Of a stretch of 64,000 nt of DNA, positions 4,882 through 63,442 are shown in pieces. Numbering within the stretch: position 1 is the stretch's first letter; each line of letters starts with the position of its first letter. The position numbers and the translations under genes are program-made. This stretch comes from a virus: IMG/VR virus record IMGVR_UViG_3300037201_000018, positions 1-64,000 of that record; one strand, written 5' to 3'. The notes beneath the pieces were generated by a model, which was given only the letters and a program-made list of their open reading frames with translations, was not told the origin of the DNA and did not search any database.

Positions 4882-6909
4882 AAGTGGTGCTCATCGACGG
4901 CTGCCAGGTGCCGCAGATCGTGATCCCCAAGAACTCGATTCACAAGTTCTCGATGGCTCAGGTTCCGATCGAGCTGGCTGAGTCGGGGATCGAGACGAAG
5001 GATAGACTCGTCCACTCGGTGACCTATGGCAAGCGAACGTATCACATGATCTGCTTCGACACGAACCTCTGGATAGACATGGAGACCGGCGACGTCGTTA
5101 CGATCGAGGTAAGCAAGTAGGAACGACGAGATGACAGATGAAAGAGAGTCGTATGGAAAGGATAGGATTGAGATGAATGAGGAAGCCCTGACCTGTGGGA
5201 CGTGCAGGAACTGGATCAAGTTGCCCCCGAACATCGCAGCCTTGAAGGAGGTCAGGGGGCAGTGTCGAGCGATCCCGCCTCAGGCGATGCCCTTGTACTC
5301 GGCAAGGCAGCAGATGACGAGCGAGGGCATGTTGCTGATCCTGACCCCAGTCCTCGACGCTCATAGTGTCAACGCGGCCTATCCAGTTCTTCCTCCCGAG
5401 TTCCCTGCCTGCGGTCAACACGTCAGGCGAGAGACCTGGCAGCAGGGGAACTACGACGCAGAGGAGGGAGTGCTGTGATGCCGATGCCGATCGAGTGTTC
5501 ACTAGGTTCGCTGCCGTCAAAGGAAAGTCCTTGGTCGGTCAGCATGATCCCGGAAGAGGGAGCTGCGTTGCTGATGACCGAGTTGAAGTCAGTTCCAAGA
5601 TACTCGAACCTTTGGAGCTGGTTTAGGAAACGACCCACCTCTTATGACGTCATCTGTCGATTCGCGTTCAACTTCGATTTGCCAGTAGTTGAGACATTCA
5701 CGAACGTCACTTATCGTCCGAAGGGGATACTGTAATGGTCAGTAAAACGAGGCAGATCCAAATCGGTTATCTAGCCGAAGGTCGTTGTGAGTGTGGGCGA
5801 ACGAAACGCCCAGATCGGTATCGCTGTGAAGTCTGCTTGGCAAAGCATCGTAGGATCAAGTTGGAGAAGAGACATGTCAGCTGACAGACGTGAGATTGTC
5901 GTTCAGGATCAGGGGAAGATCGTCGTCGTGACTAACGACAAGGAAGTCGAACTGGGGATCGAGAGCCCCTGCTGCACCTGCGTCGCCCCCGTCTTCCGGT
6001 TGAACCTGTTCAGAGCGAGAGCCCTGAGAGCCGCACTGACAGACGCGATCGTCAACCTCGTCGGGACCGAGGCGAAGAGGAACGACTCGATCGAGGAGGA
6101 AGCTGAGTGATCTACAACATGCAAAACACGTGTGACACTGGTAGGTTCGTCGAGAAGATCATCGACGCTGGGGGGAGGGTCGTGTCAAGTAACGAGGCGT
6201 CGTCTAAGATTGGAGCGATCGAGTGCGACACGGAGACCGGCAGGGTCTACGGCCTGAAGCGAGAGAATGGAAAGTACGTGTACTACTATGACAAGGGAGA
6301 GGCCGTGAGGATGACGGAGTACTTCCCTGCTCCGCTGCGAGTCGTCTTCTTTGACGATCCTAAGACACCCAAGCCTGAGACTTGGCGTGACCGCTCGCCG
6401 TTGTTGCGAGAGGGAGTCGAGTAGGTGACCAGTTCGCACTGTCCTTACAAGCTGCTCCCCGAGACACTGAGGATGTTTGTAGACACTGAGATCGCAGTAC
6501 AGACTGGTAAGGGAGTCTGGCCTGAGTTGAATTTCTTCACGCCTAACAAGGACGGCATACCTCCGCTGATGATGATCTATGATAGGCTGAAGAAGGAACC
6601 CAACCTCTCTGATGTCCACTACACAATCGGTCCTTACGGATTTAGCATGTGGGTCATGAAGACGATCGGCGGACACGTATTGGAGATATGATGAACTCGA
6701 TCAAGCTGCACCCCGACCACTGGGACGACTTCCGATTGAGGGAGTTCTCGGAAGCGATCGACGTTCACAACCGACGGTTCAGAGTCGGTAACGCTCAGAG
6801 CGAAGAGTCGATCACGGCTGAGGAACACGAGGAGCGAGAGAGTCGCATCCCACTGTACGCCGAGAGAGCTAAGGAACGTCTCAACCTGTTCACGGGGAAG
6901 GGTAACTGA
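4878..6909 (+). CDS. cluster of small hypothetical ORFs (4878-5120, 5131-5478, 5475-5735, 5787-6110, 6107-6424, 6425-6691, ~6688-6909)
   Basis: Tightly packed co-oriented ORFs with overlapping start/stop codons; 5131-5478 has a CxxC...C...C pattern. Confidence 0.55.
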
Positions 6910-9900: not shown

Positions 9901-11333
9901 TCGAGGAGGCCAATGACTTGGGGGCAGACATCGACTCGAAGATCAGCAAAGAGCGACCAGAGAGCATTCTGAACTTCGATCCTGACGAGGCTCGTGACGA
10001 GAAGGGAGAGTGGACAAGTGGCGGAGGAACTTCAGAAGGTAAGCCAGAATCTTACAAGGACATTAAAAAGCGGATAATGAAAGAGTGGCCGAGGGCGGGC
10101 AAGATGGTTGGCGGTCTTCGAGCGTTGCGAGGAGTCCCAGTACCGAATACTGATTCGATCAGTGCCTCGATGACAGACTACGAGGAGTTGCCCGGAATCC
10201 GTGAGGTTCCCCTCTCGGCTTTCAAGGGCCTCGGTAATAAGTCGTACTCCACGGAGCGAGATGAGAAGGTAGACAAGCTCGCGGCTAGAATCAAGAAGTC
10301 TGGTAAGATCGTCCCCCTAATCGTCGTCTACGATAAGCATCCTGACAACCCGAGTTACATTCTGGAAGGAGGGCATCGCTCTGACGCACTGGCGAGACTC
10401 GGAGTGAAGTCGCTGCCGGCCCTCGTCGTACTGGATCGTGGAGCGATACGCGAGCACTCTAAGAAAGCCTCTACAAAGAACTCTGAAAGTATTCTCAACC
10501 GAATTTGGAACGCCTTGAGAGGGAAGAGGACCGATAACGCATTTTGTCCCACAGGGCTTGGAGGAGGCGTCGACGATTCGTGCTCGCCTGGGGGCGGGCC
10601 AAGTGGGATTGACATCGGTAAGTTAGGAACTACGCCGCACGACGAATGGAAGAACCTCAAGGGCGACTCCAAGTTCATCTACCACGCAACGAATCTGGAC
10701 AACCTACACGACATTAGTCAGGGTAAACTGGAGCCGCACAAGCCCAGCTTCGGGACTGACCAAAGAGAATGGCCTGACGGGTCTCGTGAGAAGCGGAGCT
10801 ACTTTAGCCACGAGCCTTCCATTGCTTGGCAGTTCGCCCCCGAAGAAGGAAAGCCAGTATTGCTGAGGATTCCCCGCGGTCCGAAACTGAAACAAGAGTC
10901 GACGGGGGACTACTACACAACGGCACACGTCGGGCGGGAGAAGGTTGAAGTTTCTACGAAGAATGGCTGGGTTAATCTGTCAAGTGGCCAAATGACTGAA
11001 AATGCAGAAGTGATGAACGTAGCGACTGTGAACCTGTTCGTGTATGGGACGTTCAAGGATGCAGGCACGCTCGACCGAGTCGCTGGTCGTGACGTCTCTC
11101 GTGAAGAGGCGACGCTGGATGGCTACCGACACGATACGGGTACTGACGGTTACAGCTACCTCCGACGAGATCCCTCCGCGTCGGTCCCCGGCTTCCTCGT
11201 CCGTCTGACCCCGCAGGAGCTACAGAAGACTGATCGCTGGGAAACTCGTTACGAACGGGAGTGGGTTACTCTCAAAGATGGGACTCGTGCCTGGGCCTAC
11301 TTCATCGACCCAAAGGACGTAGACAAGTCGTGA
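6909..11333 (+). CDS. multidomain (polyvalent) head morphogenesis protein, MuF/SPP1 gp7 family, carrying zincin-like, truncated ART-like, 2H phosphoesterase, two ParB/Srx-like, ART-like and gamma-glutamylcyclotransferase-like domains
   Basis: MuF core RADVIARTEIIRAH...VCPECEALEG...IPVHPQCRCAWIP; HEWVH; HVT...HLT; DGGHR and EGGHR; YHAT...SYFS; LFVYGTF. Confidence 0.85.
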   Translation: MLLKPKMRKLPKRTKAVSKRRKMIARKELAVRNAFCPTGEGGGQDNSCSSHGKFELGKGIDLPNKPLEKAISNPKRLPKEVGGHRVVYLEEMNNEGRADPDGTIKVGPKFFKLDVDQQNHVLIHEWVHQKNIETSVMMDNEFWDRLRSGKMWGKPEGEYNVVWGPGGNTPNENIVETTIAMVTEPGWVKEKYSGAYDYFSKKVFRNGGRDLQSENRGVANLSGRVKDNISHRGSRPVAAGLQHLGLSSKIPLSGSEQQADSKVRGLRHIQKKPTVNAFCPTGEGGGQDNSCSSHGGGSKVIETPEFKKWFGDSKVVDAQGKPAVVWHSSEAFFTAFDPAKIGSGFKEGYDGIRVIGKDGQTMEYVAFHPTQIKSTENRGTFDAKDPIITNRKRLATVNAKRNPLKADPTRTASLRRRFIADLTRRFNILKRRIYKLIVEEDAFGLKSSNHNPFTANANFSSTQVNVDDAFVEQQIKRIQAAINPSDIVELEDEPHVTVRYGLHDQDSARVEKLLSECGPIYARLGRLSLFKSPEQDVLKIDVRSNQMDGLNRRLKLLPNTETFREYHPHLTIAYLKPGTGQKYLDIPTQLEHSKLLFKSLVFSNKDREKTELMLTANAFCPTGPGGGIDPTCSLSPQEASSLISKIRGGDERSKNKGDIRPEQINKSQVIRQVPLKSIPQSIIESLRESTDRARVAKYATQKIDTPVVLVPLRKTSGFGVSDGGHRILAAIERGDTHINAIIPADSQDRLTANTRFKFHTTSEQVEAFRQWLAQQTQYLILGTSLREIEDAWWKQYVMEGYEKGAGRAFSDVRKPKTSDNVKLDFFNGTKDQFLRESFAHPVSVDKVKLLSGRVYTELKGVTEAMSQNLVRTLTDGLVQGDSPREIARDINERVDGIGRQRADVIARTEIIRAHADGQLNALRDLGVEQVGVLVEFSSTQDDLVCPECEALEGIVITIDEAEGQIPVHPQCRCAWIPANVGEDEKDQVRGKEDVDDAIEEANDLGADIDSKISKERPESILNFDPDEARDEKGEWTSGGGTSEGKPESYKDIKKRIMKEWPRAGKMVGGLRALRGVPVPNTDSISASMTDYEELPGIREVPLSAFKGLGNKSYSTERDEKVDKLAARIKKSGKIVPLIVVYDKHPDNPSYILEGGHRSDALARLGVKSLPALVVLDRGAIREHSKKASTKNSESILNRIWNALRGKRTDNAFCPTGLGGGVDDSCSPGGGPSGIDIGKLGTTPHDEWKNLKGDSKFIYHATNLDNLHDISQGKLEPHKPSFGTDQREWPDGSREKRSYFSHEPSIAWQFAPEEGKPVLLRIPRGPKLKQESTGDYYTTAHVGREKVEVSTKNGWVNLSSGQMTENAEVMNVATVNLFVYGTFKDAGTLDRVAGRDVSREEATLDGYRHDTGTDGYSYLRRDPSASVPGFLVRLTPQELQKTDRWETRYEREWVTLKDGTRAWAYFIDPKDVDKS

Positions 11334-35835: not shown

Positions 35836-38187
35836 ATGGCTGGTGAGACCGAACTCGAAAGATTAGTCGTCCGCCTGACTGGCGACGGTAGCCAGTATAA
35901 GCGGATGTTGGATACGGCGATCTCAGCGACGACCTCCGCGGCCGAGAAGATCGAGCAGTCGACTGAGAAGATGGGCTCCGGGATGGTCGCCAAGGGAGTC
36001 CTCATCGCTGAGGGCGTGACCCTGATGGTTGAGAAGTTCAAAGAATTCGGGAAGGAGGCTCTCTCCGCTTTCAGATCTCACGAGGACGCAGAGTTCAAAC
36101 TGAAGGCGGTGATCGAAGCGAACGGGGAATCTGTCTCCAAGGTAACTGAAGAGTACGAAAAGTTTGCTGACACGATCGGCAAGACAACGACTCACGGTAA
36201 GGTTCAAGTTCTTCAGTTACTTCAGATGGCTGAAACCTACGGTTTGACAGGAACTAAGGCAGAGCAGGCAGTCAAACACGCACTGGGATTCGAGGATGCG
36301 TTAGGTCACAGCGCAGAGGGGGCCTTACGCCTGACTGCGAGACTCCAGCAGGGCAGCGCTGAGATGCTGGGGAGGTTCGTCCCCGGCCTTGACAAGGCGA
36401 CGAGCGAGCAAGCCAAGCTGACTCTCGCGAACGACCGCTTCAACAAGATGTTCAAGGTCTCCGAGTCGTTGACTGAGACGACGACCGGCGCAATTACGAT
36501 GTTCCACAAATCGATACATTCGTTATTTGCGGAGCTGGGGGGACTCGTCGCTCTCGGCCTCAAGCCGATAGTCAAGCTACTCACGGAGGGAATCGACGCA
36601 TTCCAGAAGCTAGACCCAGAGATCAAGAAGGTGACGTCTTCCATCGCCGCGTTCACGGCGGTCACGCTGGCAATAGGAGCCGCAAGTACCTACGCACCGA
36701 TTGTCGGGGCCTTCAAGCTGCTCGGGACGGTAATCGGATTCTTGACAGGACCGATCGGCCTCGTCGCGGCTGCCATCGTGGGGCTTGGATACCTTGTGGT
36801 TAAGCACTTCGGAGGGATCAGCGAGACGTTCACGGCGATCAAGACCAAGTTTGACGAGTTTGCGAACTACGTTCGGCCTGTTACTACGGAGTTGGGTAAC
36901 ATCTTTCGTGTGGTGTGGGACGATATCCTAGAGGCAGGACAGACCACGTTCAATACCCTCTCACTGTTCATCAGCCCGATACTGGCGAAGCTCGGGGTCT
37001 TGATGACTGGATTCTGGGATACGTTCAGACGGGCGTCGATCGAGGCACTCATCGGAGCCGAGTTCGCGATCCGTAACTGGAAGGAGATGCTAGCCCTGGC
37101 AGCGACGTTTGCGCGTCTTAAATTTGAGACGTTCAAGGAAGACGCGAAGTATCTCTTCACTGACGAGATCCCTAACTACCTCCAGAACATGACAGGCGTG
37201 TTTAAAGCTACGTGGAAAGCCGTGTTTGATAGTGCGACGGACGCATTCAATCAGCTCGGAGCAAACTTAGTAAGCATCTCTCTCCACTTGCCGCAGCTGC
37301 TATCGGGCCGGATGGATTTCAGCCAAGTTTGGAATCCGCTAGTTGAGAACTTTGAGATTACGATCCCTAAGATCGTCCCTCTAGCCAAACGCGAACTGAG
37401 TTTCGTCGAGAAGGCACTGACGGCGGCTATGAAGGTGATGGGCGGTGGACTCGCCGCGTCGTTCATGGATTTTCGGGCCAAGCGGGTCGGTGAGTTACTC
37501 TTTCCAGACAAGGCGATCGACGCCGCCGTAGATAAGACGGCTAACAAACTGAATACGGACATCCTCCCAGTCGCGAAGGCGATCAACAAGGAGCTGCGCC
37601 CGCCTGACGTCGTGTTCTGGAGCGCGACTGCGATCACCCACGCGAGGAACCAGCTGTTCGGCCTCGCCAGGACGATCAAGACTGTTCAGACCGTAGGCAA
37701 CGCGACCGTCACCAACGTGGGAGGCGGCGTAGCGGGCCATGCCAGAGCAGCCCCTGCCGCTGTTGGAGCTGCTGCCGTTCACCCCGCGATCGCTCAGATC
37801 GTCCGTGCGGCGGTGGGTGCCTCTGCTGCCCCTGACCTGCCCGTAGAACTTGAAGAGGGTAAGTTCGGAACGGCAAATCTAATTAGCAGCAATCGTAAGC
37901 AACGGCAGCAAGAGTTCCTCCGCAAGGCCGGCGTCGTACCAGCAGGAGCTGCCCCCTCTATCCGACAGGGTCTCATACGTCCTAAATTGCAATCTGGTTT
38001 TGGCTACAAGCAACGTCAGCAAGAGTTCCTCCGCAAGGCCGGAGTCACTCCCGTTACTCCGCCGCCGGGGAGTCTCTCTCCCCAACAGACGACAATGACG
38101 GATCAGTTACTTCAGCAGATCGTGACGTTGCTGAGTGACAAAAACAAGAAGAGGACGCTCGAAGTCAGACCCCTGGGGATAGCATGA
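35836..38187 (+). CDS. tape measure protein
   Basis: ELERLVVRLTGDGSQY N-terminus, long helical Ala/Leu-rich body with a central hydrophobic segment; follows the chaperones. Confidence 0.85.
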   Translation: MAGETELERLVVRLTGDGSQYKRMLDTAISATTSAAEKIEQSTEKMGSGMVAKGVLIAEGVTLMVEKFKEFGKEALSAFRSHEDAEFKLKAVIEANGESVSKVTEEYEKFADTIGKTTTHGKVQVLQLLQMAETYGLTGTKAEQAVKHALGFEDALGHSAEGALRLTARLQQGSAEMLGRFVPGLDKATSEQAKLTLANDRFNKMFKVSESLTETTTGAITMFHKSIHSLFAELGGLVALGLKPIVKLLTEGIDAFQKLDPEIKKVTSSIAAFTAVTLAIGAASTYAPIVGAFKLLGTVIGFLTGPIGLVAAAIVGLGYLVVKHFGGISETFTAIKTKFDEFANYVRPVTTELGNIFRVVWDDILEAGQTTFNTLSLFISPILAKLGVLMTGFWDTFRRASIEALIGAEFAIRNWKEMLALAATFARLKFETFKEDAKYLFTDEIPNYLQNMTGVFKATWKAVFDSATDAFNQLGANLVSISLHLPQLLSGRMDFSQVWNPLVENFEITIPKIVPLAKRELSFVEKALTAAMKVMGGGLAASFMDFRAKRVGELLFPDKAIDAAVDKTANKLNTDILPVAKAINKELRPPDVVFWSATAITHARNQLFGLARTIKTVQTVGNATVTNVGGGVAGHARAAPAAVGAAAVHPAIAQIVRAAVGASAAPDLPVELEEGKFGTANLISSNRKQRQQEFLRKAGVVPAGAAPSIRQGLIRPKLQSGFGYKQRQQEFLRKAGVTPVTPPPGSLSPQQTTMTDQLLQQIVTLLSDKNKKRTLEVRPLGIA

Positions 38188-51059: not shown

Positions 51060-51824
51060 ATGGACTCGGACTTCCCCAGTGCGATGCTCCCCGAGATCGA
51101 GGAGTTCCTCTCGAAAGACAGCGAGAGAGAATCTGGACTCGATCTCTACCCAGGCGTCTTCGACACACAGCACTTCTTCCCGCTTCAGAGGAAGGAGGAG
51201 CTGAAGAAGATGATCCAGACGGCTCGGAAGGTCGAGCCGAAGGTCATCATGGAGATCGGAGCAGATAAGGGGGGAGGACTGTATCACTGGTGTAAGTGCT
51301 TCCCCAGCGTCGAGAGAATCATTGGATGTGAGATACGAGGGACACCGTACTCCAGCCTCTTCGAGCGGTCCTTTCCGAATGTCAACTTCCTCTGGCTGCC
51401 GGTGAGCAGCTACGACAACAAGACGCTGAACGCTGTTCACAGGTGGCTCGGCGAGGAGAGACCCGACAGGCTGAAGATCGACGTCCTGTTCTGTGATGGC
51501 GAGAAATCGTACTTCAAGAAGGACATCGACGCCTACCTACCCTTCATGTCCCCGAAGGGGGTTATGTTCCTGCACGACATCACGGACTGGGATGGTCCCC
51601 CGCAGGCGTTCGAGTACGCCCAGAGTCTGGGTTTCAGGACCGAGACGATCATCGACAAGTCAGACACGATGCAGTCGCTCGGGAGGGCGATCCAGGGTCA
51701 GGCAGCGACGACTCCCTACGAGAGCTGGCTACGGCACTGGGCCGGGACCTCGTGCGGGGTCGGGGTCGTCTGGATGAGAGAATCTCAATTTACTGTCAAC
51801 GAAAGGAAGTTTAGAGATGAGTAG
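51060..51824 (+). CDS. class I SAM-dependent methyltransferase (Methyltransf_24-like)
   Basis: IMEIGADKGG, IDVLFCDG, GVMFLHDI. Confidence 0.75.
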   Translation: MDSDFPSAMLPEIEEFLSKDSERESGLDLYPGVFDTQHFFPLQRKEELKKMIQTARKVEPKVIMEIGADKGGGLYHWCKCFPSVERIIGCEIRGTPYSSLFERSFPNVNFLWLPVSSYDNKTLNAVHRWLGEERPDRLKIDVLFCDGEKSYFKKDIDAYLPFMSPKGVMFLHDITDWDGPPQAFEYAQSLGFRTETIIDKSDTMQSLGRAIQGQAATTPYESWLRHWAGTSCGVGVVWMRESQFTVNERKFRDE

Positions 51825-51961
51825 CGGCAAACCAGTTCTACAGCCTCAGCCGACTTGCAAGCATGAGTGGGAGATCTCCCGCGTGAGGGTCGGCATCAAC
51901 AAGTATGAGACCCGACATACCTGCAAGAAATGTGGGGAAACTAACCCACCAGGAAAGTAGA

Positions 51962-52852
51962 ATGGCTAAAGAGTGCAAACTGATAGGACAAGTTGGAGGA
52001 GTTTATCAGATTAGAAATACCTCAAACCAAAAAGCCTATGTTGGATCTACGAAGTGCTTTACTGGTAGATGGAAGACGCATAAGATCGCCCTTAGAAACG
52101 GCATTCACCCTAACAGATATCTGCAAAACGCTTGGAACAAGCACGGAGAAAAAGCATTCAAATTTGAGATCCTTATTAAATGCCGCTCTAGCTTGTGCTT
52201 GAAAAATGAGCAGAAGTGCATAGACGAAAGGACACTTAAAAATCTGTACAATCTTGCTCCAAAAGCTAACGGCGTTTTTGGAATCAAATGGTCAGAAAAA
52301 TCTAAAGAGGCTTTTCGGGCACGTTGGAATGAAATTTACTTAACTCCTGAATATATTCAGCACATGAAAGCTATCAAATTCGGAACAAAACGGTCAAAAC
52401 AAGCCATAGAAAAACACAAACTGTGGATGAGTAAAAACCGAGCCAAACTCGGAGCAGCTATTAAGCGGGGTCTTGCCAATCCCGAGGCCAGAAGAAAAAT
52501 GCGTGAGGCAGCTGCCAGACGTTGGGCATCGCGTAAGGCTGAGATTGCTAAAGTCAACGCAAATAATCGCAAAAATATAAACCCAGCGGTGTCAGAAGGT
52601 GCCAAGAGGGGCTGGATTACTAGAAAAGCTAATTACGGGACAGATGGGGGAGTCTCTGGGAAAATAGCAAATAAAGCTTTAATAACCAGAAGACAGAGAT
52701 ATGGCCCCAGTGGAAGGTCTCCAAGAGCAGCGGCCGAACTAGAGAAGCATCGAAAGCAGGCAAAATTGAGGAAAGATAAATTCAGGAAGGAACTGGCAGA
52801 AATCTATGAAAATATTCTCACGAAAAGACGAAAAACCAACACCAGTATGTGA
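51962..52852 (+). CDS. GIY-YIG homing endonuclease (Seg/I-TevI-like)
   Basis: GVYQIRNTSNQKAYVGST, RWKTH, LQNAWNKHG, EQKCID, YNL; basic C-terminal repeats; AT-rich. Confidence 0.85.
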   Translation: MAKECKLIGQVGGVYQIRNTSNQKAYVGSTKCFTGRWKTHKIALRNGIHPNRYLQNAWNKHGEKAFKFEILIKCRSSLCLKNEQKCIDERTLKNLYNLAPKANGVFGIKWSEKSKEAFRARWNEIYLTPEYIQHMKAIKFGTKRSKQAIEKHKLWMSKNRAKLGAAIKRGLANPEARRKMREAAARRWASRKAEIAKVNANNRKNINPAVSEGAKRGWITRKANYGTDGGVSGKIANKALITRRQRYGPSGRSPRAAAELEKHRKQAKLRKDKFRKELAEIYENILTKRRKTNTSM

Positions 52853-53280
52853 ACATCTATGGGTCAAGAAGTGTACTGGCGGAGTCTGTCAGGTCGTCTG
52901 CGTCCTCTGCGGTCAGAAGGGAACTAACGCCAGTTTACCCAAGATAGACCCAAAAGTGTTAGAGACTGTACGTAATCATCTAGGACCTTCAAAGTGAACG
53001 AGCAAGTGAGAAAAGAACGAACGCTGTCAGATGAAGAGTTAGGTGCAATTGAATTTCGTGTCAACGGTTGGTTGCCAACCGATCCAGATTACGCAACAGA
53101 GGGGATGATCTCCCAAGAGATCCCGCTTCTCATCAGTGCATTACGTTCTACGAGAAATGCGCTCCGACAACAAACGGGACTCGTCGAGAACGCTCGTAAA
53201 GTTGTGGAAGAAGGACAATCTTGGTCGTTCTTTGAATTAGAAGAAGCTCGCCAAATCCTCCGAGCATTGGGAGAGGACAA

Positions 53281-53871
53281 GTGAATGACCTGACCAAGAA
53301 GCTCGTTGAGATGTTCCCCAACGGCGGGTACTTCGTCGAGGCAGGGGCACACGACGGGATAGGCGACTCCCAGACCTATGAGTTAGAGCAACTCGGCTGG
53401 AACGGCCTCTGCGTAGAGCCCTCGTCAGCGTTCCACGGACTAACCGAGAGCCGCAGGTGCAGGCTAGACAACCGTTGCCTGTGGGACCACAACGGATTAG
53501 CTCCATTCACAGAGATCTCCGGAAATGACATCGAGCTAAGTGGTATCTCTGGGTCATTCAACTACGACGAACACGGCCGAGATAACCTTTCTAGCTATGT
53601 CAGCTTAAAGCAGGCGGTCACTCTTACCGCGATGCTCAAGGATCACGACGCTCCCTCAGTCATCGAGTTCCTGGCATTGGACACTGAGGGATCAGAATTG
53701 GCGATCCTCTCGGTTCACGACTTCGAGCGGTATCGGTTCCTGTTCATGGAGATCGAGTACCACACGGACAAGAGACGCGAAGAACTGACTCAACTACTTG
53801 TACCGAAGGGATACCAACTCCACTCTGACGACGCGGTAAACTTGTTTCTGACCTACGGAAGGGAGATATAA
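53281..53871 (+). CDS. FkbM family methyltransferase
   Basis: YFVEAGAHDG, GWNGLCVEP, IEFLALDTEGSELAIL. Confidence 0.85.
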   Translation: MNDLTKKLVEMFPNGGYFVEAGAHDGIGDSQTYELEQLGWNGLCVEPSSAFHGLTESRRCRLDNRCLWDHNGLAPFTEISGNDIELSGISGSFNYDEHGRDNLSSYVSLKQAVTLTAMLKDHDAPSVIEFLALDTEGSELAILSVHDFERYRFLFMEIEYHTDKRREELTQLLVPKGYQLHSDDAVNLFLTYGREI

Positions 53872-53877
53872 TAGAAA

Positions 53878-53945
53878 TTGCGTGGCTAGGGTCGCTCCTG
53901 AAAAGCAGAAACCTCGCTGCCTGCCACGTAACTTTTTAATTGAGG
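53878..53945 (+). promoter_or_regulatory. structured leader (three-way junction) upstream of the HNH gene
   Basis: ttgcgtggc/gccacgtaa outer stem; internal agg...cct and gcag...ctgc hairpins; TATAAT at 53867. Confidence 0.45.
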
Positions 53946-54617
53946 GCTACTGGGGGAGTAGAAAACGTGACAGAGATTAAGGACATTAAAGGACAGCGGT
54001 TTGGCAAGTTGGTAGTCTTAAGCTATGTCGGACAGAACAAGTTCAGGAAGGCCGAATGGAGGTGCCAATGCGACTGCGGTAAGACTACAGTCACAACAGG
54101 AGGCGGATTAAGGTCAGGCAATACAACTAGCTGTGGCTGTTACCAGAGAGAAGCTAACAAAACCCACGGTGAGTCACGAGTCAACAGTAAGGAATACAAA
54201 GCTTGGGGCGAGATGTTGAGCCGATGCCGGAACTCAAACGGGAAGGCATACCACAACTACGGCGGTCGGGGAATCAAAGTCTGTACTCGTTGGTTGTTAT
54301 TTGTAAATTTCCTAGCTGACATGGGCCGTAAGCCAACTCCTCAACACAGCCTTGATCGTTATCCAAACAACAACGGCAACTATGAACCCGGAAATTGCCG
54401 ATGGGCGACCAAAAAGCAACAGGACACGAACCGCAGACAGACGCGACTGCACACATTCAATGGTGAGACGCTATGCGTTAAAGACTGGGCTAAGAAATAC
54501 GATCGAAGCTACGACGTGCTACTGAAAAGAATCCAGTCTGGATGGGACTTCGAGAAAGCCCTGATGACTCCCTACAAAAAATACAAACTAAAAAGAAAGG
54601 AGGTGCACAATGGCTAA
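53940..54617 (+). CDS. HNH-type homing endonuclease (GQRFGKL...CDCG family); start may be GTG 53967
   Basis: GQRFGKLVV, WRCQCDCG, SCGC, YGGRGIKVCTRW, SLDRYPNNNGNYEPGNCRWAT. Confidence 0.85.
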   Translation: MRATGGVENVTEIKDIKGQRFGKLVVLSYVGQNKFRKAEWRCQCDCGKTTVTTGGGLRSGNTTSCGCYQREANKTHGESRVNSKEYKAWGEMLSRCRNSNGKAYHNYGGRGIKVCTRWLLFVNFLADMGRKPTPQHSLDRYPNNNGNYEPGNCRWATKKQQDTNRRQTRLHTFNGETLCVKDWAKKYDRSYDVLLKRIQSGWDFEKALMTPYKKYKLKRKEVHNG

Positions 54618-55381
54618 TCCAATGGTGTTTAAGCATATCGAGCTGGAAATACTAACGGCTTGCGATTGTGCCTGCTTTTGGTTGTGATCGAATGAGCGAC
54701 GTCACCAACGCACCGAACATGACGATCGAACAGGTCAAGCTGTTCGTCGACGAGAGCCTTGAACTCGACTGGGAGTGGGAGCGTATTCGATTGCTCGGGG
54801 GAGAGCCTACTCTACATCCCAAGTTCCGTGAGATCTGCGAAGAGCTGATTCGTTACCGTACCAAGTTCCCTGGCGTCTTCCTTCAGGTCCTCAGCAACGG
54901 ACTCGGCAAGTTAGCCCAACACCAGGACTGGCTCGTCGAGAGGAACATCGACCCACACGTCGAGGCCAAGAACAAGACCGTCCAGCCTCACTGGTTCGTC
55001 AACACGAGGATCGTCCCTCTCGACAGAGACCCCGACTGCCCCGACCTACCGCCGTGCGGGATCTTCGGCGTTAGGGGCTGTGGGATCGGACTGACGAGGC
55101 ACGGATACTTCCTCGATGGTGCTGGGGCCTCGATCGCTCGTATCGCTGGGTTCAACATCGGAGTCCAGCACCTCAAGAACGTCACGATGGAGGCCATGCT
55201 CGAACAAGCCAAGCCAATCTGCAAGCGCTGCGGACACTGGAACGACCAAACGCCAGGAGTCCCATCAGTGACCAAAAAAGTTTCGGAGACCGGGATGACG
55301 ACTGGGGCCTTCTGGACAGAGACCCTCGCGAAGTACAACAAGGAGAAGCCAGTCCTGACCGTCTACGGGAGCGACAGATGA
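54610..55381 (+). pseudogene. radical SAM protein with a +1 frameshift inside the CxxxCxxC motif
   Basis: ATG 54610 frame gives MANPMVFKHIELEILTACDCACFWL*; removing one T of TTTT restores CDCACFGCDR in frame with LLGGEPTLHP and VLSNG. Confidence 0.7.
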
Positions 55382-55569
55382 CAAATGTACTTCAACGAGA
55401 CACGACTAACGGCGTGCTGTTCGGCGTGTGTGCTGGACTGGCCAACTACTTCAGCGTCGACGTCACGCTCGTTCGCCTGGCATTCGTCGTCGGCTTATTC
55501 TTCACGCTCGGCCTCGACGTGATTGTCTATCTGGCGCTGTGCTTCCTAGAGAAGCGACCGGAAGAGTAA
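55378..55569 (+). CDS. pspC: PspC domain membrane protein
   Basis: LQRDTTNGVLFGVCAGLANYFSVDVTLVRLAFVV matches the PspC signature. Confidence 0.8.
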   Translation: MTNVLQRDTTNGVLFGVCAGLANYFSVDVTLVRLAFVVGLFFTLGLDVIVYLALCFLEKRPEE

Positions 55570-55570
55570 C

Positions 55571-56149
55571 ATGACTAGAGATCGTTACTGCCTGCCTCAG
55601 AACTACATTACGAGGCCTGAGCCGATCTTCCACGATGATACGACGTTGAAGGACGAATACCAGAAGGAAGTGTACGCCGAGGCGAGAGACTACTACGACA
55701 GATACGAGTTCAACACAGTCCTCGACCTCGGCTGCGGCTCGGCGTTCAAGCTGCTCAAATACTTCCCCGAAGCCCTGACAATTGGAGTCGACCTGCCTTC
55801 TACCGTAGATTGGCTCCGCAGGAATCATACCGAGAGAGCCTGGAGGGATTGGGACGACGGACCCACGAACGCGGAGTTAGTGATCTGCGCCGACATGATT
55901 GAGCACGTGAAGGACCCCGACGAGGTCATCAACTTCATCGAACGCTGCAAGCCAACCCTCATCGTGATCTCAACGCCAGACCGCTCGTTACTGGAGAAGG
56001 GCAAGGAAGGTCCACCGAATAACGAAGCCCACGTCCGGGAGTGGACCTTCGACGAGTTTGGTGAGTACCTCCGTCAGCGGTGGGTGATCATCGATCAGAA
56101 AGTAGTGAACTACCAACAATCAACCCAAGTGGCGGTCTGCCGACTATGA
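55571..56149 (+). CDS. class I SAM-dependent methyltransferase
   Basis: VLDLGCGSAFKL, LVICADMIEHVKDP, ISTPDR, HVREW. Confidence 0.85.
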   Translation: MTRDRYCLPQNYITRPEPIFHDDTTLKDEYQKEVYAEARDYYDRYEFNTVLDLGCGSAFKLLKYFPEALTIGVDLPSTVDWLRRNHTERAWRDWDDGPTNAELVICADMIEHVKDPDEVINFIERCKPTLIVISTPDRSLLEKGKEGPPNNEAHVREWTFDEFGEYLRQRWVIIDQKVVNYQQSTQVAVCRL

Positions 56150-56721
56150 AACTCACGATCCTCATGCCGACGCTCGTCGAACGTCGTGACACGCGGAAGA
56201 AGTTGGTCAACGAACTCCTGAGACAGACGAGAGGCCACAGGAGAGACGTCGAGCTGTCAGTCTTCGAGGACGATGGGACGATGTTCTATGGGCGAAAGAT
56301 GCACGTGATGTACTCCCAAGCGAAGGGAGACTACGTCTGCTGCGTCGACGATGACGACTGGGTTGCAGGTAACTACGTCGAGTGGATACTGAACGCGATT
56401 GCAATTGGGCCAGACGTCGTCACGTTCGACCTCTATCGCGTCGATCTTGCCCAGACCTGGACGTTCGGAACCAAGTACCAGGACCGAGAGGTTGTTGGAT
56501 CTAAGATTGGGATGACGGCGAATCACCTCTGCGTCTGGCGGAGGGAACTGGCTCAGTCGGTTCCCTGGCCCGACGAGACACAAGGGGCCGACGTCGCGTG
56601 GTACACTGAGATGCAGCGAAAGTATCCAGACGCTCTTGAACAGCACATCGACGCGATCCTCTACCTCTACTTCTTCGACCGCTCGGTCAGCCGCTGCCAC
56701 GAAAGGTTAGATGATGAGTAA
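56146..56721 (+). CDS. GT2-like glycosyltransferase
   Basis: LTILMPTL, AKGDYVCCVDDDDWV, GADVAW. Confidence 0.8.
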   Translation: MKLTILMPTLVERRDTRKKLVNELLRQTRGHRRDVELSVFEDDGTMFYGRKMHVMYSQAKGDYVCCVDDDDWVAGNYVEWILNAIAIGPDVVTFDLYRVDLAQTWTFGTKYQDREVVGSKIGMTANHLCVWRRELAQSVPWPDETQGADVAWYTEMQRKYPDALEQHIDAILYLYFFDRSVSRCHERLDDE

Positions 56722-56895
56722 GTGGAAGAAAGACAATCTAGCCGCTGTAGTTGACGACCTCGTGAAAGGAAAGATAGATGAGCAAAAGGCGAGAGAAAGA
56801 TTGGCGGTAATCATTGACGAATACGTCGTTGAAGCACTACAAGACAGGGACCACAGCGAAGAGTCTGCATTACAGAGATCGTTTAGGAGAGAACT

Positions 56896-58503
56896 ATGAA
56901 GGCAATACTTGTTGCCGTTAATTTCCTTGATATCCTGTCAATCACGCTTCCTTACAATCGACATCACTTCGACGAGGTCTGGATCGTCACGAACCAACTG
57001 GAAGTCAGCAGTCCCAAGATGATGCAGTTAGCTGCGGACAACCGAGCGACGCTGTTCGGGACCGACGCCTTCTACGAGGATCATGCCGTTTTCAATAAAT
57101 TCAAGGCGCTGGAGCAGGGACTCGACGCGATGGGAAGAGACGGTTGGTTATGTGTAGCACCCTGGGTCCCCGTAGAAGCTCCATTCGTTAAAGGCGCATC
57201 GAGAAAATGGTACGTCGGAAATCTGATCACGATCAGGACCGTCAGTGGCCGGTCAGTGTCCGTGACACCTGATCACAACTTGTTTACCTCTCGCGGTTGG
57301 GTTCCAGCGAAATCGATTCGCAAAGGAGACAATCTCTTTCAGGTCAGCAGTCCCGATTGTCTTGGGGCACCAGACGTACACCAGCGTCCACCCGAGATTG
57401 GTCAAATAGTCGATGCGGCGTTTGAGAGATCCGCGATGAAGAAGGTGGGGTCCGTGAGGATTCGTATGGATCTCAAACCCCAATTTCTTGACGACGATCG
57501 CGACGTCGATGTTATACCGTCTGACAGCGAATTGTCTGTCGACCTTGAACCGCTTCGACAGTGTGTCAGCGACGTCGCCTTCGTAGCGTCCGATGCAGAC
57601 CTGGTTTGCGTGTCTAGTCTTAGCGATCTTCGACGAGACCTTCGCGGGACGCGCTACGCCGGTACGCACAGCCCTCATCGCAGCGACCCGCTTAGCGACG
57701 GCCGCCGGAGAATCGTGAGTCGCCCTAACTTTACCGGCTTGGCTATGACTCCGTTGTATTATTCCAGACAGTCTGAGTTGCCTACTGATAACCTTGTCAC
57801 TTGTATCAAAAACAGCGGCGATAGTTCTCAAGCTATCGCCGGCCTCATAACGCCTGACGACGTAGTCTCTATCGATGCCATCCCGTGGTCTGGTCATGTC
57901 TATGATCTCTCTACGGTTCAAGGTTGGTTCCTAGCAGATGGACTTATTATACACAATTGCATCATGGACGCCGACGTCCTCTGGCCTAAAGACATTGGCG
58001 GAGTGATGATCGAGAACAGTTCCAACAGGAACTTGATCCTATCAGATTGTGGTTGCTCATTTACGTTTGGCTATCTTTACACTCCCAAGCGGCGGATGTT
58101 CACCAATCTCACGAAGCCAATTCCGCCGGAGTCCGAGTGGAAGGACTACCCCTACCATCACTACTTGGCTGAGTGGAGTGGCTACACCCAGATATTCCAC
58201 GGCAGCGACCCAGTCCTTCCGAATCCGCCTTGGCATGACACTTCGTGGTTACATGCTGGCGGCGGCGACAGCGGATTTCAGAGTCTGTGGCCACCAGACA
58301 AAAAGCTCCGTACACCCTTTGAATGCTTGCACTTGGGCGACTCGCTTAACTGGACAGGGAGAGTGACGAAATACGTCGACGGGTCTACTCCGCCGGGGGC
58401 CGAAGCAAACCGCCAGAAGCTGGTGAGGTTCCTGCACGAGCGAAGTCTGAAGGGCAGCAGGTCAGATCGCTACGACCACGAGAAGATACAAAGGACTGAG
58501 TGA
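56896..58503 (+). CDS. GT-A glycosyltransferase interrupted by an intein
   Basis: Exteins join as FNKFKALEQGL...DGWL|CIMDADVLWP (DxD motif), then GYTQIFH, AGGGDSGF and CLHLG. Confidence 0.8.
   Translation: MKAILVAVNFLDILSITLPYNRHHFDEVWIVTNQLEVSSPKMMQLAADNRATLFGTDAFYEDHAVFNKFKALEQGLDAMGRDGWLCVAPWVPVEAPFVKGASRKWYVGNLITIRTVSGRSVSVTPDHNLFTSRGWVPAKSIRKGDNLFQVSSPDCLGAPDVHQRPPEIGQIVDAAFERSAMKKVGSVRIRMDLKPQFLDDDRDVDVIPSDSELSVDLEPLRQCVSDVAFVASDADLVCVSSLSDLRRDLRGTRYAGTHSPHRSDPLSDGRRRIVSRPNFTGLAMTPLYYSRQSELPTDNLVTCIKNSGDSSQAIAGLITPDDVVSIDAIPWSGHVYDLSTVQGWFLADGLIIHNCIMDADVLWPKDIGGVMIENSSNRNLILSDCGCSFTFGYLYTPKRRMFTNLTKPIPPESEWKDYPYHHYLAEWSGYTQIFHGSDPVLPNPPWHDTSWLHAGGGDSGFQSLWPPDKKLRTPFECLHLGDSLNWTGRVTKYVDGSTPPGAEANRQKLVRFLHERSLKGSRSDRYDHEKIQRTE
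57151..57957 (+). mobile_element. intein (269 aa)
   Basis: Starts with Cys (CVAPWVPV); block B VTPDH...GWVPAKSIRKGD; block F HVYDLSTV; ends IIHN followed by Cys+1. Confidence 0.9.
57253..57897 (-). CDS. antisense-encoded HTH plus PD-(D/E)xK (Vsr/DUF559-like) endonuclease nested in the intein
   Basis: RYEAGDSLRTIAAVFDTS (HTH); E..VADTL...QFAVRRYNIDVA...LGFEIH...H...RIDYLTNLGWTLVYVW; ATG at 57897 with AGAGAG upstream. Confidence 0.75.
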   Translation of the reverse strand: MTRPRDGIDRDYVVRRYEAGDSLRTIAAVFDTSDKVISRQLRLSGIIQRSHSQAGKVRATHDSPAAVAKRVAAMRAVRTGVARPAKVSSKIAKTRHANQVCIGRYEGDVADTLSKRFKVDRQFAVRRYNIDVAIVVKKLGFEIHTNPHGPHLLHRGSLKRRIDYLTNLGWTLVYVWCPKTIGTADLKEIVSFANRFRWNPTARGKQVVIRCHGH

Positions 58504-58711: not shown

Positions 58712-58844
58712 TAAACAGAACGACCGTTGCAGACTGGGATCGCACGCCGTAGGAGTCGAGGTGTGTAATCTGGAAGGCGACAAGCGTCTAGAGACCGTCA
58801 AGGATGAAGTCCGGGCGGTTACGTCTGACCGTCGTTCCGTTTTA
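58712..58844 (+). ncRNA. candidate structured RNA at the convergence of late and early transcription units
   Basis: Closing stem 58712-24/58831-44 enclosing two arms (gcacgcc/ggtgtgt; gaccgtc/ggcggtt with ggat/gtcc). Confidence 0.35.
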
Positions 58845-58888
58845 ACTAAAAGAGCCGCCGGCACCACGGCCAGAGAGCGGGCCGCAAA

Positions 58889-59968: not shown

Positions 59969-61704
59969 CTACCGAGCCACCGCCGGAGATTTGCGAAGGC
60001 TCTCAACTGCTGCCGTGGCGAGCGCTTCGTAGCTCGGATACTTTACGCACCACGACTGATAATCGGCACGCGGTTCCGTGTCCGGCAGATCCACGTCGGC
60101 CGTCACGGTGATAAACAGCTTCATCATGCGGCCAAACACGTAATCGCCGTAGGGATGTCCGGGGCGATCAAAGCTCATTGGATAATCACCCTGCCCTCGA
60201 ACGTTGTTCCAGACCATCTCTTCGGTCACGCTTCTGCGCTCCTGAAGCACTCCCATGCCCGATGCACGGCCGCAGGCTTCGTAAGCGAGGAAGAAAATCC
60301 GTTTGGCCAATTGCTCACCACTAAAACCTTCCACTTTGAACTTCATAACTTTCTCCAGTTTTGAAAAGTCACCACTGAACGCTACCCTACCTTAGTGCGC
60401 TTACGATCTAGGTCGGCTCGGTCAAGAGCCGCTTCCCAAGCAACTGGATTCTTGTAGCTCTGATCGTCGCGTAGAGATAATTCCTCATCTTCGTATTCAT
60501 CCTCGTCGTCGTCTTGGTAGTCATCAGGGTCGTCTGGACCTTCGTCCTCCTCGTCAACCAAGCCCAACTCATCGACAACGTGACCCGTCGTGTCCTCGTG
60601 CTTGTTCGCTTCAAGGCCGTCGTTTGTCGTAAAGTTGCAGTGTCCGCAGGTGTACATCAGCCGTCTCCCATCATAACACATTCCAGTGGAATCTGATACA
60701 GCTTGTCCTTGTCGAACGTATCTAACCTGACGATCGCGTCGGTCGAGATCGTGTCCAGCTCGCTTTTACCTAATATGGTTCTGGTCGTAACGCCGGCCGC
60801 CGCTGGGACGAATGCGATTAGCGTCGCTTCGATCGGACTCCGCCAGTCCTTGTTCAACCTGACGACGCATTTGAGATTGAGCATCAGTTCTTTCCTTTAC
60901 TGGCTGATCTGTAGACGTGAAAAGAGTCAGACGTCTGCCCCTCCTTTCTCGGTCTCACGGAGACTACTTCGTTGTTCGTGAACGCCGTTACCCAGCAGTA
61001 GTGCTTCCCGTGCTTGTGCTCGCTGATCCTCCCCTGCTTGACGACGTTGGAGACTCTCTGGATCGCAGTCTCCTCGTCGATCTCCGGTCCGAACGTGATG
61101 ATGATCCTCTTCATGGTTCCTCCTTGGTTAGAAGATGCTGGGCTTGACCTACCTAGCATGAGAAGCCGTCCGAGATGAGTTTGGCGGCTCCAAGGTTTCA
61201 GACTCGGTAATTCCCACACGACTGACTGAGGTAAACTACGTAGCCATCTTGGTCTTGGAATTCCGTTCGACAGGTAATGTCGTCAGATTCGTGTTGGGGA
61301 GACAAAACCGAGTAGGCGGTAATCGTCTTGTCGCCGTTCGTCCAGTTGAGACGATCCCAATCATATCGCCACTCCCCAGGGAACATCTTACGGAGTTGGT
61401 CAATTACTCGCTTACGAGGCATAGACTAAGCTTCCTGACTTGGTTCCTGAATCATGTCGTGACCGAACGTCCTAAAGAACTCGTCCCTGATCTGCTTCTC
61501 GATGTAGCGGAGATCATCTAGAGATAAGCTCAAATCTGCCGAGTCTCTACCTGATCTTATAAGTTGTAACATCAGACCTAGATCTTGAGCTAAGTTAGCA
61601 ACAACCAGAGGGAATTTGGCGACTGCCCCTAGTCGGTTCAGCTCGCTCATCGCGAGGATCTCTTGGGTCTTCGCCCCTTCCAGCTTCTTGCGATCAACTG
61701 ACAT
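59969..61704 (-). CDS. cluster of small early ORFs (59969-60346, 60382-60681, 60657-60884, 60884-~61114, 61198-61422, 61426-61704)
   Basis: Contiguous minus-strand ORFs with RBSs; 60382-60681 has a CxxC...H...H Zn-finger-like motif and an acidic tract. Confidence 0.55.
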
Positions 61705-63442
61705 AGATAAGCTCCTCGATCGCCCTCGTTATGGCGATGTAGCGACAATTCCATTCTTGCTCGACCTGCCACTTGCTCTTGGCCATCGGATGTGGAACGG
61801 TCGCCCCTTCCGGTTCAAGTAAGAAAACTCTCTTGTTTTCGAGGCCCTTCGCTTTGTGAATCGACGACAGTCTAATCCCGGTTCCGTTCTTGTCGTCGGT
61901 GAACACGCTCTCGATCTTCGCGACGACTCCCGCAACCGTCGTCTGGTCTTCACAGAATGCAATTAAGCAGTCGTGACGATCTTGCAGGGCGATCAGTCGG
62001 GTGTCGGACGGGTTGCGCTTCGAGTTCTCCTTCGTCTGTTCCTTGTGAAGCCAGTCCTCCAATTTGACGAGCAGTTGCGAGACGTCGTCACACTTCATCT
62101 TGTTGATCGTGCTGATGAGCCCCTGTCCGACGTCTCTGCCTTGAATTACGGCTTTTCGTCCAGCCTTGAGGAACTTGAAACACTGCGAGACGAGAGGTGC
62201 GTTACAGCGACAGAGGATCATGTCTCCGTCTTGGACGTAACCGCGGTAGTTACTTTGAGCAGCCCCGTCCTTCGCTTCCTTCTCGTCATCCTTGTACTTG
62301 AGTCCGTGACGAATCGCCCCGTCGCAGTTTGACTCGTGCGCCTCGAAGTCAGGCACGATCCTCTGAGCTTCCTTGACGATCGCCTTCCCGCACCTCCGAG
62401 TGACGGTGAGCGGGAGAGTGACGCAACCTCGAACTGAAACTGGCGGGTCTATTTTTTGAGCAGCGTAGATGGCTTGAAGCACAGATCGACTACGCGGTAC
62501 ACCGAAGCACTCACTGAGTTCTTCCGCCATCCGCTTCATGCTCTCGGAGTCGGCTCCTGCGAAACCGTAGATCGCCTGCTTCGGGTCTCCACATAGGATG
62601 AGACGCCTTCCCGACATCTTCGCGAGGGCTTGTTGAACTTTTGAAAGGTCCTGGCACTCATCACAAAGCAATACGTCGTACTTCTGGACGTTCAAGCCGA
62701 GAGCGACCGGAATCCACACCATGTCGTTGAAGTCCACGCAGTTATCGCGAGCGACGTCCTTGCACCGTTCGAGGACTCGCGGAACCAGCGAAAAGACCTC
62801 TTCCTGCGAGCTGTTCAGGTCGACGTCGTAGTACGAAGCCAAATCCCGAAGAGTCTCATTCCAGTCTGGATCTCCGGGTTTCATCGAGTTACCACAAGGA
62901 TCGAGGTGAGAGAGGTTCATCTTGCAGAGACCGACCAGCTCCTCCGTCGCCTTGACGAGGACCGGCTTGGTACGTCGGAGTTCGCGGATGTCGCGTTCGA
63001 GCAGCTCGGAGACGACGTCCTGCACGCGGTAGCTGTTTACCTTGACGTTGCCGAACGCCCGCTTGACTGAGGAGAAGCCCAGGCTGTGCATCGTCATCGC
63101 GTCACAGCCTGCGGGGACTCGCCGCTTCAACTCCTCAGCTATGCTCTTGTTGAATGCCACGAAACCAACAGTCTGTGCTTTCCCCTTCGACAGGCAGACG
63201 GCGTCGAAGATCGCCTGCTGCTGCGGGGAGGGGACGATGTCCGAGGGGAGACCCTTCAGCAACTTGAGGGACTCAATGAGAGTTGTCGTCTTGCCAGTCC
63301 CCGCTCTCGCCTCAATGATCAGGTGGGGGGTGGTGTCCGCGCCGGTATCTCGCTTCGTCTTTAGCCGGTCCGCGAGAGTTTTCCGCCCGTCTTCCCGTAC
63401 CACCTGATCCTGTGCTTTTTCCTCAACGCGATCAGTAACCAT
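61694..63442 (-). CDS. UvrD/Rep-like superfamily 1 helicase
   Basis: EARAGTGKTTT, VAFNKSIAEEL, LCDECQD, GDPKQAIYGFAGA, SSIHKAKGLE, YIAITRA. Confidence 0.9.
   Translation of the reverse strand: MVTDRVEEKAQDQVVREDGRKTLADRLKTKRDTGADTTPHLIIEARAGTGKTTTLIESLKLLKGLPSDIVPSPQQQAIFDAVCLSKGKAQTVGFVAFNKSIAEELKRRVPAGCDAMTMHSLGFSSVKRAFGNVKVNSYRVQDVVSELLERDIRELRRTKPVLVKATEELVGLCKMNLSHLDPCGNSMKPGDPDWNETLRDLASYYDVDLNSSQEEVFSLVPRVLERCKDVARDNCVDFNDMVWIPVALGLNVQKYDVLLCDECQDLSKVQQALAKMSGRRLILCGDPKQAIYGFAGADSESMKRMAEELSECFGVPRSRSVLQAIYAAQKIDPPVSVRGCVTLPLTVTRRCGKAIVKEAQRIVPDFEAHESNCDGAIRHGLKYKDDEKEAKDGAAQSNYRGYVQDGDMILCRCNAPLVSQCFKFLKAGRKAVIQGRDVGQGLISTINKMKCDDVSQLLVKLEDWLHKEQTKENSKRNPSDTRLIALQDRHDCLIAFCEDQTTVAGVVAKIESVFTDDKNGTGIRLSSIHKAKGLENKRVFLLEPEGATVPHPMAKSKWQVEQEWNCRYIAITRAIEELIYVS

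Follow-up and report, generated by a model that had tools for sequence, protein, structure and literature searches.

The textbook intein is a splicing domain fused in frame with a homing endonuclease. In the viral DNA studied here, a class-1 intein interrupts a glycosyltransferase-like gene, and a gene for a Vsr-like nuclease, the putative homing endonuclease, lies on the opposite strand of the same DNA in exact codon register. The window, i.e. the whole stretch of DNA that was analysed, is the first 64 kb (64,000 nucleotides) of the IMG/VR virus record IMGVR_UViG_3300037201_000018, which is 94,383 bp long and rated as complete by CheckV. The host open reading frame (ORF; 56896..58503, plus strand) encodes 535 aa and runs uninterrupted through an insert of 269 aa. 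The locus comprises the following features.

56896..57150, plus strand: N-extein of 85 aa with the C-terminal end GRDGWL, which aligns with 138 intein-less homologues
57151..57348, plus strand: N-terminal HINT splicing lobe, intein residues 1-66, recognised by Pfam, modelled by AlphaFold2 with a predicted local distance difference test score (pLDDT) above 90 and matched in Foldseek by mini-inteins only
57349..57837, plus strand: sense linker, residues 67-229, without stops; residues 136-226 are predicted to be disordered (AlphaFold2 pLDDT 35-52)
57838..57957, plus strand: C-terminal HINT splicing lobe, residues 230-269, with block F (GHVYDL) and block G (ending in IIHN), pLDDT above 90
57958..58503, plus strand: C-extein of 181 aa plus stop, beginning with the +1 Cys and then the D-x-D motif (CIMDADVLWP), from the homologue alignment
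57253..57897, minus strand: putative antisense homing-endonuclease gene, 214 aa from a conserved ATG at 57897, stop at 57253-57255, with 986 homologues
57898..57918, minus strand: leader of the antisense gene, inside the block F coding sequence, with a purine-rich GAGAGA 8 nt before the ATG
57751..57900, minus strand: helix-turn-helix (HTH) DNA-binding domain, nuclease residues 8-57
57816..57841, minus strand: terminator-like hairpin whose 9-bp stem has 6 G-C, with a T-run behind it, situated roughly 60 nt inside the antisense ORF
57259..57600, minus strand: Vsr/DUF559-like PD-(D/E)xK nuclease domain, nuclease residues 108-221
57580-57582, 57511-57513, 57505-57507, 57472-57474 and 57466-57468, minus strand: conserved nuclease residues E114, N137, D139, E150 and H152, respectively

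On the sense strand, the initial annotation had described a complete intein (Cys1, TPDH, VYDL, HN|C) just before the D-x-D motif, and all class-1 landmarks of the insert (57151-57957) were found at the coordinates it had given. Cys1 is encoded at 57151-57153 and the +1 Cys at 57958-57960, and the intein terminates in H268-N269. Block B contains T39-P-D-H42 (57265-57276), while block F reads G-H249-V-Y-D-L, of which H249-L253 correspond to 57895-57909. The Pfam family Intein_splicing (PF14890) was matched above its cut-off (E 1.7e-10, 41.4 bits vs 35.8). In an alignment of 53 inteins, residues C1, G23, T39, H42, G49 and N269 are invariant and V250, Y251 and L253 nearly invariant. As far as its sequence goes, the insert is confirmed as a complete class-1 intein that would be expected to splice. 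A split intein within a fractured gene was rejected, as the host ORF is one uninterrupted frame of 535 codons. No further inteins were found in the phage genome.

The middle of the intein had been described as filler without a LAGLIDADG or HNH motif, and this also stands. In the AlphaFold2 model, which was built with the 53-sequence alignment of sense inteins, the middle contains the predicted disordered segment. The top Foldseek matches of the model are the splicing domains of the Mtu RecA and Pho RadA inteins (probability 1.00); the matches are HINT splicing domains only and Foldseek revealed no nuclease likeness in the sense middle. Identity to the intein of the orthologous protein P0152 amounts to 50-75% in the lobes vs 15% over residues 136-228.

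The opposite strand, at 57253-57897, had been described as one unbroken ORF with an HTH followed by a Vsr/DUF559-like motif; the frame was found to be intact and both domains were recovered. The antisense frame is open up to a TTG at 57921 (222 aa), and nuclease residues are numbered here on these 222 aa, so that the conserved start methionine is M9. Pfam matches of the antisense protein are weak but coherent and correspond to REase_MTES_1575 (E 3.7e-4), DUF559 (E 0.041) and HTH_38 (E 0.0047). A word-indexed protein search with the antisense ORF gave no match; an exhaustive HMMER search with the antisense protein gave 986 relatives at E ≤ 1e-3, including 226 at E ≤ 1e-10, which are mostly full-length proteins of 215-300 aa. 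Conservation of the catalytic residues, on which the initial annotation had placed weight, was observed in an alignment with 34 relatives: N137, D139 and E150 are invariant and lie in the motifs YNIDVA, FEIH and LGWTLVYVW that had been pointed out. E114 is conserved, H152 is present in the window copy and common in the family, and the nuclease motif reads E...YNxD...ExH. The common start of the family corresponds to M9 (ATG 57897).

The AlphaFold2 model of the antisense protein reached a pLDDT of 91.7. The predicted layout of the 214-aa protein consists of an N-terminal HTH of the resolvase/repressor-like type and a C-terminal Vsr/DUF559-like nuclease, with a helical linker between them. Foldseek returned weak E-values for the nuclease model (best relevant one 0.06) and a full comparison with VIA-align gave a clear ranking; in addition, the profile of the nuclease family matches the structure 3hrl (E 1.6e-5). 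According to these models, the antisense protein has a Vsr-like nuclease fold and is predicted to cleave DNA. The HTH is duplicated in the antisense nucleases of Gordonia phages (L012/L014: Fosterous, record 9073-9852, minus strand), and many database relatives likewise carry the HTH twice, match in two stretches and have about 55 additional N-terminal residues.

Both frames share the same codons. The antisense codons coincide one by one with sense codons, as their exact reverse complements, and the overlap with block B, the start within block F and the roughly 650 bp open on both strands that had been noted earlier were all retrieved, the doubly open stretch measuring 645-669 nt. Sense stops correspond to antisense TTA, CTA or TCA, and vice versa. 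These three codons are never used in the nuclease gene, which keeps the host frame open. The C-terminal strand of the nuclease, VIRC here and 'VIR(G/C)' in the family, is the reverse complement of TPDH in block B, or 'TP(N/D)H' in the family.

At a GC content of 55%, double openness alone is only moderately unusual: among 20 other genes of the phage, three also have an exact-antisense frame free of stops over 219 codons or more. In recoding simulations, the antisense frame stayed open with P = 0.0015 given the sense peptide, and the sense frame with P = 0.027 given the antisense protein. Because of its homology (986 relatives), the antisense ORF is not a mere product of chance, and a chance ORF was rejected. 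GC content by codon position in the overlap is 0.55/0.46/0.61 when read in antisense, vs 0.56/0.47/0.67 in the genes of the phage, and the sense reading gives the reversed order.

Selection on the two strands was examined with a codon-position test in the Gordonia phages Fosterous, Vivi2 and Angelicage, with the following counts.

N-extein: 79 codons differ, 79 of them synonymous in sense and 13 synonymous in antisense
Intein residues 137-216: 89 codons differ, 11 synonymous in sense and 62 synonymous in antisense
Intein residues 17-56, the overlap with the N-terminal splicing lobe: 19 codons differ, 17 synonymous in sense and 2 in antisense

Mid-insert changes fall mostly at sense position 1, i.e. 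antisense position 3, and the sense frame is again dominant where the tail of the nuclease ORF overlaps the N-terminal splicing lobe. Purifying selection therefore changes strand within the intein, and the selection on the antisense frame that the initial annotation had anticipated is seen in the middle of the insert. Judged by its coding capacity and by purifying selection at the level of the family, the antisense ORF is a real gene, which would be expected to be expressed.

These data bear directly on the idea that the antisense ORF is a non-coding 'shadow' and that the in-frame sense middle is the true endonuclease. Long open exact-antisense frames do occur in other genes of this phage, and some motifs of the sense middle are conserved across relatives. 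Nevertheless, these motifs mirror YNxD and VIRG of the antisense protein as their reverse complement, the substitutions between relatives are synonymous in antisense, and it is the antisense protein that has nuclease-family matches, a predicted nuclease fold and numerous relatives. The sense middle is predicted to be disordered even when the 53-sequence alignment is used and has no nuclease match. A sense-encoded nuclease was rejected in view of this disorder and of the selection and fold found in antisense, and its probability is considered negligible.

The antisense layout recurs well beyond the window. By tblastn, full-length antisense homologues mapped to the strand opposite annotated head genes in Mycobacterium phage Sejanus (E 2e-26), five Gordonia phages (E 2e-11 for Fosterous, Affeca and Malisha), 14 Pseudomonas phages and Cronobacter phage ES2. 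Between 91 and 99% of the window antisense protein was matched on the antisense strand of the inteins of Sejanus, Fosterous, Affeca, Vivi2, Angelicage and Malisha. The nuclease ORF is annotated in none of the phage records examined. IMG/VR was scanned with a pattern derived from a 6-sequence alignment, one of 35 sequences being too divergent, which gave 189 confirmed loci, of which 80 were retrieved; no loci were recovered when IMG/VR was scanned with a single protein, either the window ORF or P0001. In all 80 retrieved loci, a longer open frame on the opposite strand covers the nuclease gene in constant phase and contains blocks B, F and G as well as the Pfam Intein_splicing domain. Bacterial genomes and metagenome-assembled genomes showed the same antisense-in-intein layout in 16 of 16 loci. 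The antisense frame, whose openness in homologues the initial annotation had singled out, is thus open in 96 of 96 viral and bacterial loci.

This constancy extends to contigs of 37-47% GC. When six relatives of 40-60% GC were recoded, the probability of an open sense frame was at most 0.005, and none of 5,000 recodings was open in the most AT-rich ones (L092 and L060). The exteins are MuF, portal-MuF fusions, a phage metallopeptidase and VG15. Besides the phages named above, relatives are found in contigs that were binned with Bacteroidales, Anaerolineae, Acidobacteriota, Omnitrophota and Gammaproteobacteria. When nuclease proteins from the databases were compared with sense intein proteins for codons compatible as reverse complements, no exact pair emerged. 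The intein with an antisense nuclease is a real layout that is widespread in phages.

Several relatives deserve separate mention. A cultured actinomycete, Micromonospora carbonacea DSM 43168 (L110, NZ_FMCT01000011.1), harbours, at a site of the CDC type, a copy of the intein together with the antisense nuclease; this copy presumably sits in a prophage, and the organism could serve as an experimental system. At L030:1312-1950 (minus strand), a 213-aa intein has an antisense nuclease ORF shortened to 125 aa and looks like a decaying copy heading to a mini-intein. The Vsr-like antisense ORF is present in Affeca and Angelicage, and Keitabear and Sedona match the sense intein only, with 24% identity. 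These four phages are placed in one cluster in a preprint, where endonuclease-VII-like inteins are discussed (bioRxiv 10.1101/2025.01.02.630785); their MuF genes may contain several inteins or differ in the inteins they hold.

The host gene was characterized through its homologues. A search with the C-extein retrieved 138 proteins without the insert, 240-290 aa in length, and in their alignment GWL is contiguous with CIMDADVLWP. The D-x-D motif (D89, D91), 2 residues past the splice junction, is invariant in these intein-less homologues. A related intein, 40% identical in sequence, occupies the same GWL|C site in the orthologue P0152. The extein family has no Pfam assignment and its homologues give only sub-threshold matches to glycosyltransferase family 2 (GT2), such as Glyco_tranf_2_4 with E 0.0015 on P0242; a search of PDB sequences with the extein profile gave no useful match. 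Look-alikes of the extein by ESM features are viral glycosyltransferase (GT2-like) clusters (score 0.97). Since these sub-threshold matches and look-alikes stand beside the invariant D-x-D, the product is likely, but only likely, a phage GT2-like glycosyltransferase-like protein, with putative metal binding by D-A-D.

Insertion sites of the intein family fall into four classes, namely MuF HPN|CRC, MuF WL|(C/S)TxD, CDC and others. The maximum-likelihood tree of the nucleases tracks the insertion-site class, with 6 changes vs 19.9 when labels are shuffled. In this tree the window nuclease is nested in the MuF WL-site clade, with support of 99 and 97 in the Shimodaira-Hasegawa-like approximate likelihood ratio test (SH-aLRT). 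The reconstructed intein-less junction, TGGTTA|TGCATCATGGAC, matches the MuF junction of L029 at 15 of 18 positions. Because of this nesting and this similarity, the data suggest an extein switch, in which the intein left MuF and entered a look-alike site of the glycosyltransferase-like gene. The MuF gene of the phage itself has an uninterrupted HPQ|CRC, the commonest target of the intein family, and no WL-C-x-x-D site.

The start of the nuclease is embedded in the intein. The block-F His codon, read as its reverse complement, supplies the ATG. Among 43 relatives this codon is CAT, read as ATG, in 33 and CAC, read as GTG, in the other 10; elsewhere in these inteins CAT accounts for 41%. In 33/43 relatives the start is preceded at about 8 nt by a GGAG or GAGG core, which is formed by the block-F Leu codon CTC together with the next codon, CTC being used in 33/42 vs a background of 42%.

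Each computational test by which the initial annotation could have been refuted turned out in its favour. Taken together, these observations make it probable that the element is a mobile class-1 intein in a GT2-like gene, with its homing endonuclease encoded on the opposite strand in exact codon register. Under this reading, the host gene would be translated straight through the insert, giving two HINT lobes (residues 1-66 and 230-269) joined by about 160 residues whose sequence would be mostly unselected and partly disordered. The lobes would excise the insert, join GWL to CIMDAD and thereby restore the D-x-D enzyme. The nuclease would be translated from the ATG opposite the block-F His and end just beyond block B. 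In co-infecting phages it would be expected to cleave alleles without the intein close to TGGTTA|TGCATCATGGAC, whereupon repair would copy intein and nuclease jointly. The present copy would derive from the MuF WL|(C/S)TxD lineage and have moved to the glycosyltransferase-like gene.

Several observations weigh against this interpretation. The selection test was performed in Gordonia-phage relatives and not on the window copy, and the window nuclease forms the longest terminal branch of the tree (1.04 vs a median of 0.49), which could reflect relaxed constraint. The Shine-Dalgarno-like element of the window (GAGAGA) is weak, and no sigma-70-like promoter was found on the minus strand between 56600 and 58700, the promoter scan being negative for both strands. 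Read-through from the convergent minus-strand operon would be blocked by terminator-like sites at about 58853-58873, and the terminator-like hairpin at 57816-57841 lies within the nuclease ORF. This hairpin could attenuate endonuclease expression or be due to chance, as 4 such sites were found vs 1.8 ± 1.5 expected.

These points would also fit an architecture that is real but in which the endonuclease is silent or decaying, so that a vertically inherited intein splices and no longer homes. Decay is known in the family from the shortened nuclease of L030, and vertical patterns are described for some VSR-like cases in the preprint (bioRxiv 10.1101/2025.01.02.630785). Against it, the ORF is intact over 214 codons with all invariant residues and a confident model, and its chance openness is low under the recoding model (about 0.0015). 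Moreover, the extein switch implies earlier activity at this site, and the orthologous P0152 has the same intein. A silent or decaying nuclease is therefore regarded as unlikely.

It has also to be considered that the antisense protein is expressed with a main role other than homing, for example as a DNA-binding regulator or an anti-competitor nuclease, or that an antisense RNA lowers the expression of the host gene. The resolvase/repressor-like type of the HTH would be compatible with this, and antisense transcription across a late gene would alter the expression of that gene. However, the nuclease phylogeny co-segregates with the insertion site, as expected if the nuclease recognises the site, the catalytic residues are invariant, and, in terms of function, the nearest relative with a solved structure is a proven homing endonuclease (PMC3239194). 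Such a role appears very improbable.

A wider proposal builds on the preferred reading of a mobile intein with an antisense homing endonuclease, and its truth is judged to be evenly poised. It holds that the nuclease family (about 1000 clusters at 50% identity) has no existence apart from inteins, whose antisense partner it would be; in none of the 96 loci is it free-standing. Its start and ribosome-binding site lie in the reverse complement of block F and its last beta-strand in that of block B. This would be an obligate two-strand symbiosis, in which the window copy arose by a jump from MuF via an 18-nt look-alike target (15/18). If the family is such an obligate partner of inteins, it would be one of nature's most extensive examples of long sense/antisense double coding.

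The surroundings of the intein gene are those of a tailed phage, with a portal gene at 776-3481 and a tape measure gene at 35836-38187, and nearly all genes up to about 59 kb are on the plus strand. The giant MuF-like head-morphogenesis protein (6909-11333, plus strand, 1474 aa) contains an extra RNA-ligase-like stretch (phrog_755, residues 470-579). Directly upstream of the intein gene lies a block of methyltransferase, radical-SAM-like, GT2 and GIY-YIG nuclease genes. After the tail genes, a series at 51060-58503 (plus strand) comprises methyltransferase, radical-SAM-like, methyltransferase, GT2 and GT2-like genes and is possibly a DNA or virion glycan-modification module. An ORF of 315 aa (51905-52852, plus strand), whose product has a GIY-YIG catalytic domain according to Pfam (E 1e-7), probably represents a free-standing homing endonuclease gene; it lies in the sole low-GC patch of the window (52001-54000, GC 0.47 vs about 0.55). 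Downstream, opposed terminator-like hairpins (plus strand 58814-58833, minus strand 58871-58853) lie within 58814-58873 at the boundary between the long plus-strand block and a minus-strand block that includes a UvrD-like helicase gene (61694-63442).

The consequences of such a layout are several. About 650 bp encode two proteins on opposite strands, and the nuclease gene is permanently barred from three codons. The case bears on how inteins acquire endonucleases, which could be by invasion of a mini-intein by a free-standing gene. A synonymous change of a sense Leu or Ser codon can create a stop in the nuclease, so that homing is separable from splicing. Genome annotation is affected as well, given that the nuclease gene is missing from the phage records examined. 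Finally, the window copy, with its new host gene and plausible extein switch from MuF, offers a testable case of target change by homing elements.

Contiguous inteins with anti-sense VSR-like or LAGLIDADG endonucleases have been reported in the preprint by Gosselin, Arsenault & Gogarten (bioRxiv 10.1101/2025.01.02.630785). The architecture is therefore already described, and what is new here is the host gene, which is glycosyltransferase-like. Like the inteins of actinophage minor capsid (MuF-like) proteins described there, to which it is homologous, the window element is a full intein with a fold-less sense middle and a Vsr-like ORF opposite; unlike those cases in a head protein, its host gene is GT2-like and belongs to an uncultured 94-kb virus of 55% GC. 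The codon register, the start and ribosome-binding site embedded in block F and the overlap of block B with 'VIRG' are described here and were not met in the consulted sections of that preprint. The present analysis thus adds a new host gene, evidence of an extein switch and family-wide detail on the shared frame ends. The same preprint cites anti-sense LAGLIDADG inteins in Synechocystis dnaX and in a Chloroflexus SpoVR-like gene (Gorbalenya 1998, Gogarten 2002); these resemble the window element in having the endonuclease opposite a contiguous intein, but the nuclease is LAGLIDADG and the hosts are cellular.

In 'fractured genes', found mainly in phages, a free-standing Vsr-like endonuclease gene lies between the halves of a split intein (Dassa et al. 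2009, PMC2677866). The likeness is that the Vsr-like endonuclease is a separate ORF within the intein; there, however, the host gene is split between two ORFs and depends on trans-splicing, whereas here the host frame is continuous through the nuclease gene. The prototype of the EDxHD (Vsr-like) homing endonucleases is I-Bth0305I (Taylor et al. 2011, PMC3239194; PDB 3r3p), which, unlike the window nuclease, is encoded on the sense strand, in a group I intron. The family profile gave no sequence match to 3r3p, and the E...YNxD...ExH motif of the window has at most a putative correspondence to the EDxHD motif of I-Bth0305I (D196, H213). Antisense homing-endonuclease genes are also known from nuclear group I introns such as the L2066 introns (PMC9548176), in which the endonuclease gene likewise lies opposite a self-splicing element. 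These introns are RNA, and a second frame need not stay open in them, whereas in the window intein both strands must be translatable.

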